Notes: generated from the sequence alone by a model not told the origin. DNA of 64,000 nt from Neodothiora populina (GCF_041146345.1 NW_027191407.1:124001-188000); one strand, 5' to 3'; counted from the stretch's first letter, positions 9,456 to 46,400 are shown. Program-made: numbers and translations.

Positions 9456-10414
9456 GTCTTCTGATCCAATCAAGTCACCTGTTCCTACAAGGTCCGACCA
9501 CCTCGAGCATGGCACTAGGAATACTCGGTCATTTCACAAAACGCCGAACAAAGTCACTGCATCCCAAGCATATATGCGCATATGCGCACATGCGCACATA
9601 CACCCATCATGCGGCAAATCTCGCTCCAAGCAAAGATACAACTTTGAGACCAGTGACAAGCGCGCTTGGGCCATGCCAGCTTGCGGGTCTGACTGCACTT
9701 GCTCATCGGAGATCATCGAAGGAGTCCCGCACACACAGAGGACCCTTGGCGCGTGACGCCTTCCTTTAATTACGGCTTGGGTCATACTGCACGACGCTCT
9801 TTGCTCCGTCGTCACAGCCACGGCATTTCGAACGCTCGGCGTAGAAGTATCAAGGGAGCGAATGCAAAGCCCCGCCCTCACAGCTCGAGAGCTTTCCATC
9901 CTTGCTCTTGTGAATGACGTGACGGGATCAACCTAATTTGTCCAAGGATATCAATCAGTCCGAGAAATAGGCATTGGCATCTGTCTGAGCCGAGTATGAA
10001 CCTACCCTCGACAAATCTACTCGCCATCATCTTCTTGTGCACAGTCAGCAGGACTGAACTGCAACGGACTGGACTGGACTGAACTGTCTGAATCCGGTCG
10101 CAGTCTGGATTAGATAGAGTGGCTGGTGGATGTGCTTCTTTGAAACAATAGTCTTGCCGAGCCGAGGAATTAGAGATGTAGTAAAGACACAAATAGGAGT
10201 TGGCAGTGGCACAAAAGATTCATTGCAAAGAAAAAACAATAGACTTTCTTATTCATGTTCCGTCGAAGACGACACCATCATTGACAGATGATTCTGACTA
10301 GACTAGACCAAGTCTCTCTCATTCAACTCGCATGACTAGGACAAGACAACAACAACACTCCCCGTCGATCATCCTCGAATTCTTCTTCAGTGATTCGTCC
10401 CTTTGTCCCCGACA

Positions 10415-12252
10415 TCAGTCTTGAACTGGTCTTCCGTCACACCCTTGCCCATGGCAGCGGTACTGCTCACTCCACCGCTGACCATCTTCAGCATGTCGTC
10501 GATGTAGTTAGCGCCCGACCATTCTGCGATTCGATATATTAGCAATCTTTTCCTTTTCTCTCCATCTTGTCTTTGGTAGACTCACTTTGATGCAAAAGCA
10601 CATCCGTGCCAGCAGCGTGTTCCTTCTCCTGCACGTGCATGGCGTAAGCGCGCATGCCCGACTCACTGTACGCTTTCGAGAAGGTGTCGGTTATGAGGGC
10701 GGTCTGGTGCAGTCCAGCCAAGGTGATGAATTGCCAGCAGTAGCCGAGCTGAGCGAGACGCTGGATGTACGTCTCTTGCTCGTTCGTCGACATTGCTGTC
10801 TTCCAGTTGAAGGAGGGCGATAGGTTGTATGCCAGTCTGGCGAAAACAGATGATTAGCAGAAGCACTTAGAGGCAAGAACAGTATGGCTTACTTTTGTTC
10901 GGGCCACACGGCGTGCACGCCCTCTGCGAACTGCTTGGCCTGCTCGAAATCAGGAAGCTTGCTCTCCATCCAGATCATGTCGCAGTAAGGAGCGTAGGCG
11001 ATGGCACGAGTGATGCCAGGCTCGCAGCCGCCCTTAAAGCGGTAGTAGCCTTCTCTGGTCCTCGCCGCGTCCCAGTCGAAGAAGACTTCGACGCCAGTCA
11101 AGGCCTTTGCGATAGCTCTGGACTCGAGGTTGCTCTTTCCTTTTGATTGCTTGAGGAACTCGCTGATCATCTCTGCCTTGTTCACGTGGACACCTGCGTT
11201 GATGGTGTCGACGACGGCCTCACTGAAGAGCTTGAGGTGCGCTTGCTCGGTCCAGTTGTCTTCGATGGCCTGGAGCTCCGGTCCGTTCTTGCCTGCTTGC
11301 TCGGCGGCGATCATGAGATCGTTCAGCGGTTGCAAGGCTGGGTTTGTGCTTCCCATGATGTAAGCGTGGTCTCGAGGATCAATGCTGGATGCGATGAGGG
11401 TGGCAGCCTCGGCGTCGGTACGTGCAACAGCGAGAAGGTCAGAGCCTGTGAGAGTCAGTATATGTGCACAAGAAGCAATGAGTTGTGCAGCTTACCCATG
11501 ATATCTGCTTGTGCACGGATGGCCACGAGACGGTTGATGTGTTCGCTGACCGGCACAAGCACCTTTCCAGCCATGTGACCGCACTTCTTAGTTCCCGGAG
11601 CCTGATCTTCAATGTGAATACCAGCGGCTCCCTTCTCGATGAAGAGTTTAGTCAGCTTCATGACGGCAGTCAGACCGCCGTGACCAGTATCGGCATCGGC
11701 GATGATAGGTCGAAGGTAGTCGATGCTGGGCAGCTTTGAACGCTGTGAAGCAGGCGCGGACAGACGTTCATTGCGTTGCTTGCGGTCATGGAATAGCTGT
11801 GCCATGAAGAGATGCTGTACCTTGTTCGGCACAGTGGTGTATGGGTAGTCCGCGAGATCTGGACCGGGCTCATCCGAGGCGGAGGCAGTGGAAGAACTCT
11901 GCCATCCGGAAACATAGACGGTGTCGAGGTACTTGGCCATCTGGGTGACCATGACAGGATCGAGGCATCCATATGTGTAGCTCACTTCCTTGTTCTGATT
12001 ATAATGTCAGTCTGCGTCTTCGTGACCCAATGAAAAACAAAAGCAGCTACTTACTGCGAATCGTTGCTCAAGCGTCTTCCATAGCTTCTTGGACAGGACA
12101 TTGCTAGGATACTCGATCTTGAGATTACCACGCTTGTTCACAATCTGCTCGGGAGTGTATGGACGCTTCGTATATCTCCATCGAGAGTCAGACCACCACT
12201 GCTTGATGGCCTTGACTTCGTCTTGGAACTGTTGTTCTTCGTGGTCGGTCAT
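10415..12252 (-). CDS. ICL1: Isocitrate lyase (glyoxylate cycle), multi-exon
   Basis: [25 protein letters not shown], catalytic [23 protein letters not shown] (ICL-type rather than methylisocitrate-lyase-type), C-terminal [13 protein letters not shown]. Confidence 0.95.
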
Positions 12253-12434
12253 GTTGGAGATACTGCTCGACAGCTGCGCGGCAATTTGTTTCAGACGGTC
12301 CGCCAGTTTGACTGATACTCAAGACTATATGCACAACAGAAGAGAGGGCACACAAGATCAGGTGGACAGATAGTATGAGTAGTGCGTCACAATATGGATG
12401 TAAGAGATGCTTTCTAGAGACCAAGAAACAAAAG

Positions 12435-12946
12435 GTGGGGAGGAAGGGGGGAACGAATGAGACATTTATATATACAAATCACCTTTCTCATGGAAAACCT
12501 ACTTATGACTGTTACATGATACTCGGAGGCCCTCGGGGGATAGGCTGGGAAGACTCATGTGTTCGACCTCGGGAAAGGCAAGTCTGGAGACAGAGAGAGG
12601 TCCATTGATGCGCGGGAGCTGGGGCTCATGACAGAACCAAAACCGTTCTCTGTTTTCTAAGTACAGTCACCACTAGGACTAGTTGGCGACGGTAGCCGTC
12701 AAGTGGTCCAAGGCAGATGGAAGTCTGACGTTTTCCCCTTTCACCCGAGGTTGCTAGATCTGGGGTAAGAGCGCCTTCACATGCCAAAGTGCGGAGGGCT
12801 AGCGGGCAACGGGAGTTGGTCTAAAGAGCAATGCGCGTTCTTATGCGTCCAATCATCAGCCTCGAATAGCGGGTTAAATGCCATGGACTCATGCTGTCGC
12901 TAAGCACACACTTTTGCGCGTACAATGATTCAATACTTGGCCGAGG
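12435..12946. promoter_or_regulatory. ICL promoter: TATA-like element, four CCTCGG/CCGAGG (FarA/FarB-type) cores and five SYGGRG (CreA-type) sites
   Basis: TATATATAAA on the - strand at ~12465-12474. CCTCGG at 12531 and 12567; CCGAGG at 12745 and 12941. SYGGRG at 12435, 12584, 12619, 12760 and 12791. Confidence 0.55.
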
Positions 12947-13187: not shown

Positions 13188-14274
13188 CTAAAGAAGGGTA
13201 TCACCAAGAGCACAGCGCACCAGAGAACATCCAGCACGAATGGTCTCAGATGCACCCTCGGACTCGAGGCTGGGATTGACCTCGACCAGATCCATGGCGA
13301 TGAGGCTGCCAGTCTCATGAACGCACTCGGCGATGAAGTCACCCTCTCTCAACGTGAGGCCTCCGCGAACAGGAGTACCCGTGCTAGGGGCCCACATGGG
13401 GTCGAGGGCATCCACATCGAACGAAAGGTGGATAGGAGTGTCGCTGCCAATCCAGCCTAGTGCCATATCCATAATCTTGCCGATGCCGTGTCTGACATGA
13501 AAGAGTCAGCATTATGTTTATCTATCGTAAGTACAAGGCTGTGTTCTTACCTGTCAATATCGTGCATAGAGAAGGCCTTGATGCCGTTTTCCCTGAGGAT
13601 CTTCTTCTCTCCGCTATCGATGTCTCTCAACCCGATGTAGACGAGCTTTTTCACGCTGACTCTTTGGTCGTCCTTGATCCATCCGAATGTCTGTTCGTTG
13701 TCATCCTTGGCCAGGCCAGTCAGGAAAGCGACCGGCATGCCGTGGATGTTTCCACTCTCTGAAGTCTCTGGAGTGTTGATGTCTGCGTGTGCATCCACCC
13801 AAATAACGGCAAGATCTCTTCCGAGTCTCTCTTTCGTTGCCTTTGCTGTGCCTGAAATGGTTCCCACGGCGATAGAATGATCTCCACCGAGTGTCAAGAC
13901 AAAACGACCTTCCTTGGCGTGCTCATACACCTGCTGGCTGAGCTTTTGTGTGACTGCGCTCACAGCTCTGGGCTTCTTCATTCCACGGTAGTCGGGATCC
14001 TCCTTGGGCATGATATCGGTGTAAGAATGGACCTGGCCATCGTAGTGCACGTTGTACTCGAGCTCAGACTTCAACTGATCGATGAGCCCGGCTTCTATCA
14101 GGGCCATGGGAGCTGCCTCGACGCCTTCCTGGCACTAAAGGTTGTCGCATCAGTGTTTGCGCCGAGTTTTGAGGGGGTTCTGTCGCTTACTTGACCACCA
14201 TTAAACGCGACGGCGACCAGACCCAACTCTGTGCGAGTGGGCAGGAACTTGGGTTGGAGAGAAGGAGCGTCCAT
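13188..14274 (-). CDS. CAR1: Arginase (3 exons)
   Basis: LGGDHSIAVGT, WVDAHADINTP, SGNIHGMP, HLSFDVDALDP, PSTGTPVRGGL. Confidence 0.95.
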
Positions 14275-43477: not shown

Positions 43478-46400
43478 TCAAAGCAATCTTGCCCGAACAG
43501 TAGTCTCAGGGGTAGCCCTAGCAATACGAGACGCGAGAGTTTCTGATGCAGCCATCGAAGCTGACTGGATAGCAGGCATAGTCGCCGCTCTTTTGAAGTG
43601 TCCAGTGTCCGTATCGGTGGTATGCTTGTCAGGCCAAAAGTCGAACCAGTAGGGCTTCGTGTTGGTCGGCTCCGCGACAGATTCACTGTAGTCGCCATGT
43701 ATTCCCTTGCAATAATCTGTGGCCCAGCGGGTGCACCTTGCTCTGAGACGCTTCTCGCCCTCGGTGGCATTCTTACGGCCGTAATGGAGAAGGACGTCCT
43801 CAAGACCGTCAACGTCATTGTTCTTCACCGAGACGCAGACTTCGCCGCAGCCCCATGTCAGACACTTGCCCGAAGATGCAGCAGTGAGACACTTGCGGCC
43901 GCGCAGGTTCGACAGGCAGGCTGACCAGATGTTGCAGTCGGAATCGTAGGCGTTCTGAACCGAGCAATGGCGCCTGCCGCCTGAGCTGCAGAGGGATTGA
44001 TTCGATGGGAAGAGATCGAGGAGCGGGTCGTGGTTCCAGTCTGCTGTTGCTCCAGACCATTTGCGCATACCGTTTACTATCCCGCTGTCGGGCATTTTGG
44101 ACATGTAGGGCGAGGGAAGCCAAGTGGGGTCGGGGTATATAAGAGATGTCGAGGACGAAGGGGATCGTTTGTCTTTCCGCTTCAGTCCCACCCTTTTTCC
44201 GGATTCCTGGGCGATGCTGTCTACATCGTCGTTGATATCTCTCCTTCTCACTACTACCGCTCCTGCTGTTGGTGGGAATACAGGCAGAGATTCAGGCACA
44301 GTGATGACATTTGGAACGACAACAGGCGTGGAGTATGTACTGTCGCTTTTGGGTATCATGGAGCCACAAGCCATATACCCCCATCTCAAGCATTTGCCAT
44401 GGCGATCTTCCAACTTACACAACTTGCCACAAATTCCTTTAGGGAAGAGCACGCGCGCCTCGTCGCAGGGGTCGACACCGTAGTGTATACATTTGAATTC
44501 GCCATCGACTTTCTCGACCTTGAAGCACGTCCGTCTGCAAACAGGGTGGTTATAGCTTTCACATACCCCGTAGGTGTTCACTGCGAAACAGAAGTTGACG
44601 GGGACGTTGTCGGTACCAGGGGGTCGGGTGAGGTAGGGTGGGTGTGCTGGAGGGTGGCGTTCTTCGAAGTCGTGCTTTCTGGTCGAAACTGGGGGTATTT
44701 CGTGTCCAGTCCCAGTATGTGCTTCACCTGTAGAAGCTGAGTGAAATCCGAGACCAGTTACAGTGGCTGCGGCGGAATTGAGATTGATGAGCGACTGTGT
44801 GAGGAAATCGTAATTAGTTCCTTCGTCGTCGGGAACGTCACTGGGAGCGACATCAGGACCAGAATTTGAAACATTTAAAGTAGCCTCGGCAGGGCTGAGG
44901 CTTATGAGTGACTGCGTAAGGAAATCATATCCAGTCCCTTTGTCGTCAGCAACATCTCTGACAACATGATCGGCATCAGACCCAGAAAGGAACCCAGTTG
45001 AAGTAGCTTCGGCAGGAGTGAGGCTTATGAGCGACTGCGTGAGGGAATCGTAGCCATGCCCATCATCATCGTCGTCAGCATCAGTACTAGAACTAGTTGA
45101 GGTGGCCTCGGCAGGAGTGAGGCTTATAAGCGACTGCGTGAGGAAATCGTATCCATGCTCATAACCATCACCAGAATCAACATCATTGTCGTATTGGTTG
45201 TCAACCTGGATACTACGGGCTTTATTGTGACCAGAATGTCTTTGGCGCCGGATGTACGGCGTAGTTCCCTCACCGTGTGAAATCACGACACGTCTCTGAC
45301 TGGTTGACAGCCAAGTTGTGAGGAATTGAACTCCGGTTTTAGTGCCCACTTTGTGTGTGCGAGTGGCAACGACAGCTATAAGCACGTCGTACTTGAGCTC
45401 TTTACGAGGATAATCAATATCTTCATTGTCTTGGTTTCCAACATTGTTGTAGCTGCGGGCAGTGATTTGGCCAGAAGGCTCGTGGCGACGGACTAATAGC
45501 GTAGATGACGAACCAGTCGAGGCTGTAAGAACATCGAACCCAAGATCGATGCGTCTCCCATTGGCCCAGGTCTTGGCTGGGAGAATATCGAATCCAGCCT
45601 CAAGACTCCTCTTACTAGTAGAGGTTGAAGCCGAGGTCGCGGACAAGTCGGTCACATTCCGCACCTCTTGCGTCGGACTAGCAGTCGATATTGTAAGGGA
45701 GTCGTGTCCGGTCTTGGTCGTGCCACTGATATCAATACCATATTCATGACTATTGTATCCGTCACGAGCATAGCGGTCGGCACGAGCATTGATCTGTTGT
45801 TGGCTCTTGATATGATCAGATCGGCTGACCTCGTCTATTTGGCGCTTTCTGATGGAGCGGTCGAGACTGAGAAGCACGTATATGTTAGCGCTATGAACTT
45901 TATCAAGAGACAGGCACCTAGTGCTTGAGAAAGAGGAGAGTTTTCTTATGGATGGAATGTCATCTCTCCTTCTTGGCCAAGGGAAATGCGATGATAAGCC
46001 CCGAATGAACGTAAGTTGATGGTCTGAGCTATCTAGTAAAGGAATGACACGGTCTATGAAAATATGTGCTTAATGAACGTGAGGGACGACTACGAAGGTC
46101 ACCTTTGGCGATGGGCGATACTATGAGTGTCTCGAAGGAGGCTAAATTGGAGTATAGGGTAAAAAGGGGAATAGGTGGCAACGGAGGAAAGTCAGACTCA
46201 TGGAGACTTGTGACCTGTAACTTACTCCGCTTGAGACAGGTTGCGCATCTCCGTCGAATTCGCCGGTGGCGGTGGAGGGGTCCCGACATCAATCGAGTCT
46301 TTAGAGACCCTCGCGCATTTGCAGTCCACGACATAGCCAGCAGCATTCTGGGTGCAAAGCCAGTGCTTATGCTTGGGGCAAGGCTTTACTTGGCTTGCCG

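Follow-up and report, generated by a model that had tools for sequence, protein, structure and literature searches.

Organisation of the isocitrate lyase locus

The window analysed here is a 64,000-nt stretch of DNA from the Dothideomycete Neodothiora populina. On its minus strand lies an isocitrate lyase (ICL) gene that matches P0001 at 100% identity (N. populina AAFC00_007190, UniRef 'isocitrate lyase', 545 aa), a protein annotated from the ATG at 12252-12250. ICL is a key glyoxylate cycle enzyme that is peroxisomal in fungi, and it is a virulence or fitness factor in many of them. On the same strand the frame 5′ of the annotated ATG stays open for 22 codons, back to a TGA, and reads VSVKLADRLKQIAAQLSSSISN. 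A CTG at 12306-12304 begins an 18-codon stretch that runs in frame to the annotated ATG and encodes (M)ADRLKQIAAQLSSSISN. An earlier note on this DNA had proposed that the CTG is a non-AUG start codon that provides ICL with a cryptic peroxisomal signal of the PTS2 type. Translation reproduced its coordinates, open frame, TGA, CTG context and 18-codon extension; its C-terminus for ICL, EDQFKD, was wrong, as the actual end differs, but its statement that this end is not PTS1-like is correct. The principal features are as follows.

12463-12476, minus strand: TATA-like box TGTATATATAAATG, the last three bases of which are the sole nearby upstream ATG
12437-12453, minus strand: 17-nt pyrimidine run just 3′ of the TATA box
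12319-12321, minus strand: in-frame TGA closing the leader frame, four codons 5′ of the CTG (from leader translation)
12303-12311, minus strand: start context TCAAA CTG G, with A at -3 and G at +4 (from the sequence and its relatives)
12304-12306, minus strand: proposed near-cognate start codon CTG (CUG) (from codon conservation and parsimony)
12253-12306, minus strand: putative 18-codon N-terminal extension (M)ADRLKQIAAQLSSSISN, unannotated (from three-base periodicity and in-frame length changes among relatives)
12271-12297, minus strand: PTS2-type nonapeptide RLKQIAAQL, residues 4-12 counted from the CUG, from CGT 12297-12295 to CTG 12273-12271
12250-12252, minus strand: annotated ICL ATG, context TCCAAC ATG A (from the sequence)
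10387-12252, minus strand: ICL coding region, five exon blocks, stop included
12252-12055 and 12054-11997, minus strand: first exon and first intron of ICL

A scan of the leader found no ATG between the CTG and the main ATG of the window. The nearest ATG 5′ of the CTG, in any frame, is 159 nt away at 12465-12463, within TATATAAATG, which bears out the claim that the leader has no ATG other than one in the TATA-like box (~12465). This box lies about 158-170 nt 5′ of the CTG, and the Aureobasidium-type loci L012, L013 and L017 have the same TATA..ATG layout 142-160 nt 5′ of theirs. Given that the sole nearby ATG in the window and in these loci belongs to the TATA box, it is probably located 5′ of the transcription start, which by its sequence surroundings probably lies near the pyrimidine run at 12437-12453. 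From one sequencing run (X1, probably DNA), a single contig of 203 nt was obtained that covers 12267-12469; it is uninformative on transcription, start site and splicing. Next 5′ of the ICL promoter, on the same strand, is a frame at 13547-14134 that we take to be arginase-family-like from motifs recognised by eye (..GGDHSIAVGT..DAHADINTP..).

An in-frame extension precedes ICL in two groups of fungi

We scanned metagenome contigs with an alignment of ICL N-termini and obtained 554 matching stretches; a relative is encoded by 176 of them, and the analysis used the best 80. In these best 80 of 176 loci we translated the leaders 5′ of the invariant WW...RW..T[KR]R block. An in-frame peptide starting (K/N/T/I)-[L/V]-A-[D/E/G] at the same codon was found in 52 of the 80 loci, as well as in the window. 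The extension is absent from the other 28 of these best 80, which include one locus, L036, that ends 3 nt before the ATG and is not judgeable.

Loci were placed by best tblastn identity to named proteins, together with identical annotated N-termini; the class labels of carriers and non-carriers are those that we take the named species to have. Among the best 80 of 176 loci the carriers form two groups. The first, which we refer to as the RLK group, is nearest to Dothideales, Mycosphaerellales/Cladosporiales and Myriangiales, and includes Aureobasidium and the Cladosporium type NLADRLKQVVAAV; the annotated N-termini of Friedmanniomyces endolithicus and Cercospora kikuchii are identical to L021 and L049, respectively. 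The second is nearest to Lecanoromycetes (Varicellaria, Teloschistes, Gomphillus) and has extensions of 12-14 codons, e.g. LADQKPFVVAVP-M. Non-carrier loci have their closest matches among Leotiomycetes, Botryosphaeriales/Trypetheliales, Pleosporales-like and Eurotiales-like proteins. A protein search limited to residues 1-40 of leader plus exon 1 returned the window's own protein alone and was thus uninformative.

Several individual loci deserve mention. The LADQKPFVVAVP-M extension is found in L046, L048, L050, L056-L058, L064 and L067; the other Lecanoromycete-like carriers are L042/L043/L045, L053/L062/L063, L027 and L073/L075/L079, the last three with GTG. The Lecanoromycete-like extension has the same CUG/GUG start and context and clear coding selection, without a PTS2-like motif. 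L042 and L045 are the sole carriers with an ATG before the main ATG (out of frame, 25 nt past the CTG), and their close relative L043 is without it. In L069 (nearest Rhizodiscina/Aulographum), at about 130-146, a stop followed by AVPTM is apparently the remnant of a ..FVYAVPT.M extension left behind a stop, and L065, a Eurotiomycete-like transcript contig, retains GAT CTG G and VVTFAVSVD-M. The remnant in the first and the retained form in the second suggest an old extension that has been lost repeatedly.

ICLs of the Chaetothyriales type have a 13-residue extension that begins at an upstream in-frame ATG (MTSTLNKISDTFK-M and variants) and has no PTS2 pattern. Cases are P0144 (Exophiala xenobiotica), P0221 (E. 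sideris), P0141, P0142, P0158, P0159 and P0188, and the loci L078 and L026; within the same 90% cluster, annotated proteins of sister species are shorter by 13 residues (537 versus 550 aa).

Comparative evidence for initiation at the CUG

Among 38 distinct sequences from the best 80 of 176 loci, the codon at the start position is CTG in 35 and GTG in three; none of the 38 has CTC, CTT, CTA, TTG or TTA. An ordinary Leu four codons further is encoded by TTG (10), CTG (8), CTC (5) and CTT (1), and for an invariant Leu of exon 1 the relatives use six different codons. Position -3 is A in 37 of 37 sequences, the 38th being too short, and position +4 is G in all 38, because an Ala codon (GCN) always comes next. 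These two bases are described as key and perfectly conserved at conserved near-cognate starts in Pezizomycotina by Ivanov et al. 2017 (PMC5487733).

Conservation sets in at the same place. Per-base entropy is 1.6-2.0 bits over -30 to -8, drops between -7 and -2, and is 0 at -3. On the 3′ side of the CTG, entropy is three-base periodic, with means for codon positions 1, 2 and 3 of 0.92, 0.50 and 1.46 in 26 RLK-type sequences (14 codons), and of 0.29, 0.26 and 0.90 in 12 Lecanoromycete-type sequences (12 codons). These alignments show protein-coding selection on the extension, and conservation begins with the CUG/GUG and its context.

We also built a FastTree tree from 35 distinct exon-1 sequences and counted parsimony changes on it. 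None falls on the third base of the CTG and two fall on the first base, both C to G. By comparison, 11 and 10 changes fall on the third positions of the adjoining Ala and Asp/Glu codons, and 11, 11 and 10 on three four-fold sites of exon 1. With 10-11 changes at neighbouring sites, zero changes at the third base of the CTG would have a probability of roughly e^-10 under an equal rate. A search through all frames of up to 300 nt found one copy of the motif A-NN-[CG]TG-GCN-G[AG] in each of 39 out of 63 distinct loci, never out of frame; the 13 distances, from 96 to 147 nt, are all multiples of 3.

In addition, there are natural swaps to ATG. The called protein P0154 begins MVFTYAVPVDM where L065 reads GAT CTG GTC.., that is, LVVTFAVSVDM; P0122, seen as protein only, begins MTLAKQKTFVYAVPVDM, with an ATG two codons 5′ of the Leu at the conserved position. 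At the main ATG the -3 base is A in the window and A in 22, G in 5, C in 7 and T in 1 of 35 relatives. A hairpin 3′ of the CTG that would aid a non-AUG start was considered and rejected: the mean z was 0.16 over 35 sequences, none of which fell below -2.

Codon identity, context, the onset of conservation, substitution rate, frame and natural swaps together argue for the CUG as the start codon, and we consider it very probable that the extension is translated from it. The earlier proposal of CUG initiation is thus strongly supported by comparison, as 52 of the best 80 loci keep the peptide, the frame and the start codon with its A(-3)/G(+4) context.

The PTS2 match in N. populina and in the extension family

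The strict PTS2 consensus, reportedly that of Petriv et al. 2004, is R-[LVIQ]-x-x-[LVIH]-[LSGA]-x-[HQ]-[LA]. RLKQIAAQL fits all six defined positions of this pattern and, if translation starts at the CUG, lies near the N-terminus as residues 4-12. The strict pattern has 3 matches in the 127,996 six-frame residues of the window, from which about 2e-4 would be expected by chance in so short a leader; the other two (at 43584 and 18806, minus strand) were dropped, their frames being broken by nearby stops. RLKQIAAQL also fits the looser pattern (R/K)-(L/V/I)-x5-(H/Q)-(L/A) given in PMC7214817, a pattern with 29 matches in the same set of residues.

The match is not kept throughout the family. Of 26 distinct extension peptides, one (the window) fits the strict pattern, two (L001 and L031) fit the classical one, five have H/Q followed by V/I, and 18 fit none. 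Among the 21 distinct RLK-type peptides, eight have H/Q at position 8 and the other 13 have A, P, V, T or S there; the Cladosporium type, RLKQVVAAV, is one with A. Counted by sequence (26 of RLK type), R is found at position 1 in 24, L/I at position 2 in 26, a hydrophobic residue at position 5 in 25 and V/L/I at position 9 in 25, and position 8 is A in 8, H in 6, P in 5, Q in 4, V in 1 and another residue in two, so that 10 have H/Q. For position 8, the window's nearest relatives have Q in L001 and L002 and H in the Aureobasidium-type L012 and L017; Q or H is also present in L009, L019 and L031. The R, L, Q and L codons of L001 differ from those of the window by synonymous changes only, and the x positions vary freely. 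The Lecanoromycete-type extension (12-14 codons) has no PTS2, and no R-L at all.

Given that 18 of the 26 extensions and the Lecanoromycete type are without PTS2, we reasoned that the extension has some conserved role that is independent of the canonical signal. We conclude from the comparison that the conserved entity is the CUG-started N-terminal extension, and that the canonical PTS2 is found in this lineage and a few others; in the rest of the family the signal may have been relaxed or lost, or the helix may serve some other role. The earlier note was right that RLKQIAAQL is a PTS2 consensus match, and its signal holds for the window and its nearest relatives; across the extension family the signal is not the conserved feature (H/Q at position 8 in 8 of 21 RLK-type peptides). 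The related leaders, whose comparison the note had proposed, contain the conserved in-frame extension with a near-cognate codon in 52 of the best 80 loci but retain RLx5(Q/H)L in part only.

For the extended relative P0002, an AlphaFold model (50-row alignment, mean pLDDT 69) has the extension helix continuous with the first ICL helix, but with a pLDDT of about 50 there, too weak to serve as evidence. A mitochondrial presequence was considered and set aside, since an acidic residue is invariant at position 3 and an acidic stretch follows the ATG.

A model for two ICL isoforms

The best explanation of these data would be as follows. With the leader of the ICL mRNA free of AUG, scanning ribosomes would first meet the CUG, whose context, with A at -3 and G at +4, is the best one for a fungal start. 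A fraction would initiate at this codon with Met, which yields an ICL extended by 18 residues; the remainder would scan on to the annotated AUG and make the short form (leaky scanning). Residues 4-12 of the long form would be a canonical PTS2 (R-L-x2-I-A-x-Q-L), most likely bound by Pex7 for import into the peroxisome. ICL is an oligomer and peroxisomes import folded oligomers, so short subunits could enter together with long ones, and a minority of extended subunits could bring them into the peroxisome piggy-back. The model presumes that the leader is transcribed in N. populina, that some share of starts occurs at the CUG, that Pex7 binds the long form and that import can be piggy-back; it would predict dual cytosolic and peroxisomal isoforms.

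We judge that the extension rather probably works as a PTS2 in N. populina, and we favour the model as a whole, a CUG-started long ICL that carries a PTS2 and is imported by Pex7 beside an AUG-started short form, as the account that is somewhat likelier to be right than wrong. Several observations weigh against it. The canonical PTS2 is not kept family-wide, as 18 of the 26 distinct peptides fit no pattern. The extension is lacking in 28 of the 80 loci, though ICL is reported to be peroxisomal in such fungi too. L002, L031 and L037, discussed below, count as transcripts solely by their lack of introns. Finally, N-terminal fusions of Histoplasma Icl1 are still imported, according to PMC13343957; no free, leader-encoded N-terminus would then be needed in that fungus, unless the tagged subunits ride with endogenous ones.

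A CUG-started extension might instead have been selected for something other than Pex7 import, such as binding of another receptor or partner, or control of ICL stability or assembly. We consider this main rival unlikely on present evidence, though well worth weighing. Under such a role, the PTS2 match of the window would be a by-product of an amphipathic R-L-K-x-hydrophobic helix. The low frequency of H/Q at position 8 and the 18 of 26 extensions that fit no PTS2 speak for it, as does the Lecanoromycete-type extension, with its CUG/GUG start and coding selection but no PTS2. Moreover, the pattern that is conserved is L-A-[D/E]-R-L-K-x-hydrophobic-hydrophobic-small-x-hydrophobic, in which the invariant acidic residue at position 3 lies outside every PTS2 definition. 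However, the window meets the strict consensus at six defined positions, a match found only 3 times in 127,996 residues. The conserved R1, L/I2, hydrophobic 5 and hydrophobic 9 (24, 26, 25 and 25 of 26) are the face of the PTS2 helix, and position 8 in the nearest relatives switches only between the allowed Q and H. In addition, the ICL of Aspergillus nidulans is peroxisomal and Pex7-dependent, as stated in PMC3764329.

A broader version of the Pex7 model is also conceivable, in which the CUG/GUG extension predates the split of Dothideomycetes, Lecanoromycetes and at least some Eurotiomycetes and is the missing signal for Pex7-dependent ICL import in filamentous ascomycetes, a minority of subunits carries whole oligomers, and start-codon efficiency sets the peroxisomal share. 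We advance it tentatively and think it doubtful. If it were true, lineages without H/Q would use a relaxed, undescribed form of the signal, or a second route via Pex5.

An upstream ATG exon is very improbable

An upstream AUG could in principle lead into the extension, either by way of an upstream exon that splices onto the CAG at 12314-12312 or in an alternative transcript; the CUG would then be an ordinary Leu codon. The window does have a CAG 5 nt 5′ of the CTG, and some protein models reach upstream: the 570-aa A. pullulans models that begin MRLK.. (P0015 and P0204), and the Hortaea-like P0006 and P0121, with an ATG 21 codons upstream. Several findings nevertheless make this reading very improbable. 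An ordinary Leu codon would not be CTG or GTG in 38 of 38 sequences, with no third-base change where neighbouring sites have 10-11. Conservation begins at -6 to -3, with none further 5′, and the AG that precedes the CTG varies among relatives (e.g. ACAATCAAG in L002 and TATTCAAC in L008). In every carrier with enough upstream DNA the nearest upstream ATG is at least 82 nt from the CTG, and a few shorter loci show none. The M of the P0015-type models is E in A. pullulans P0194 and in locus L017, so it looks like a model artefact.

Three carrier contigs, L002, L031 and L037, are intron-free, with ICL ORFs of 547, 535 and 536 aa, whereas the genomic loci break after 70-143 aa; we read these uninterrupted frames as spliced transcripts. 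In-frame stops precede the CTG by 9 codons in L002 and by 5 in L037, and L031 has a 170-nt leader without an ATG before its GTG. Stops just 5′ of the CTG in transcript-like contigs argue against an upstream ATG exon.

Two observations concern the upstream sequence of particular loci. In L002 (1-386), 386 nt precede the CTG and contain five ATGs 277-335 nt upstream, which reflects either a long leader or assembly into a neighbouring transcript. In the Hortaea-like P0006 and P0121 (source 'merc'), an in-frame ATG lies 21 codons 5′ of KLAERLKQL, so this lineage might have a long form that starts at AUG; L023 and L024, the genomic loci nearest to these proteins, have a stop 8 codons upstream instead.

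A last possibility is that ICL is made from the AUG only, the conserved block being a promoter or leader RNA motif without coding function, or the PTS2 match being due to chance. This is very improbable: although the leader could hold regulatory sites for acetate induction and the evidence for translation in N. populina is comparative, three-base periodicity extends across 12-14 codons in two separate groups, lengths change in multiples of three only (13 distances) with no in-frame stops, amino acids are kept while synonymous sites vary freely, no hairpin is conserved 3′ of the CTG (mean z 0.16; 0/35 below -2), and P0154 has an ATG at the same position.

Annotation and significance

Initiation at the CUG, which we favour, would be missed by standard gene callers, as had been foreseen. 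When leader plus exon 1 was searched against proteins, 116 of the best 120 relatives, annotated or called, began at the ATG. The remaining four run upstream: P0002 (..KLADRLKQFVGQI..), P0006 (..KLAERLKQLTEAI..), P0013 (LAERLKSILGHV..) and P0015 (MRLKTILGHV..). The Aureobasidium pullulans ICL has three kinds of model at NCBI: P0194, 587 aa and labelled '5-partial', begins LVCTTTHLIKHTTAKLAERLKTILGHV; P0015 and P0204, 570 aa, begin MRLK[ST]ILGHV, with M where other models have E; and P0196, 554 aa, starts from the main ATG. Gene callers sense upstream coding potential in this gene, yet find no start.

How ICL enters peroxisomes without a recognisable signal is a long-standing question (A. nidulans 2008; Histoplasma 2026), for which the conserved CUG-started head piece is a concrete candidate. 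If the model is correct, ICL would join Ustilago maydis Pgd1 as a second case, and phylogenetically a much broader one, of a peroxisomal signal concealed in a '5′ UTR'. With 116 of the 120 best relatives called from the AUG, the annotation error would be systematic, and constructs made from the annotated CDS would omit the signal.

Comparison with known systems

In the literature searched, we found no published upstream extension or non-AUG start for ICL, and the available parts of Kremp et al. 2020 and Ivanov et al. 2017 do not mention isocitrate.

The same enzyme has been studied in two Eurotiomycetes. Import of A. nidulans ICL (AcuD) depends on the PTS2 receptor PexG (PMC3764329, citing Hynes et al. 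2008), which confirms at second hand what the earlier note had said of AcuD. Histoplasma Icl1, which is without a recognisable PTS1 or PTS2, needs Pex5 or Pex7 (PMC13343957). Both resemble the ICL of the window in that the annotated protein has neither PTS1 nor PTS2, and in both a PTS2 receptor is involved. Unlike the window, A. nidulans and Histoplasma belong to the Eurotiomycetes, and Histoplasma import also proceeds via Pex5 and tolerates N-terminal tags. Of the Eurotiales-like contigs, L078 is without the RLK extension and L065 has only a short one preceded by CTG.

Neurospora crassa cpc-1 (PMC5487733) resembles ICL in its in-frame near-cognate codon, its invariant A(-3)/G(+4) and its amino-acid conservation 5′ of the AUG. 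It differs in that the extensions are about 180 residues long, with several candidate starts, interplay with uORFs and no targeting signal. In Candida albicans 6-phosphogluconate dehydrogenase, an N-terminal PTS2 is added post-transcriptionally and was missed by annotation, as is proposed for ICL (Strijbis et al. 2012, via PMC7214817); there it is added by alternative splicing and not by start-codon choice, and a spliced exon is disfavoured for ICL.

The closest parallel is U. maydis Pgd1, in which a non-AUG-started PTS2 is proven; about 2% of starts are non-AUG, and the protein is mainly cytosolic (Kremp et al. 2020, PMC7214817). Both genes have a PTS2-type nonapeptide in frame 5′ of the annotated AUG with no in-frame AUG upstream, and near-cognate codons in a conserved block, with the motif kept in relatives, for ICL in part of them; leaky scanning, as in Pgd1, is what we propose for ICL. 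Pgd1 uses a tandem AGG AUU, whereas ICL has a single CUG (GUG in some relatives) in optimal context, and ICL is a different enzyme that is regarded as peroxisomal. The ICL extension is found in at least two fungal classes, with the PTS2 consensus in part of them, and is known from sequence, whereas Pgd1 is known from experiment. We conclude that the making of a PTS2 by non-AUG initiation is an already known mechanism, and that its occurrence on ICL, to the extent that the comparative evidence is borne out, is new to the literature searched.
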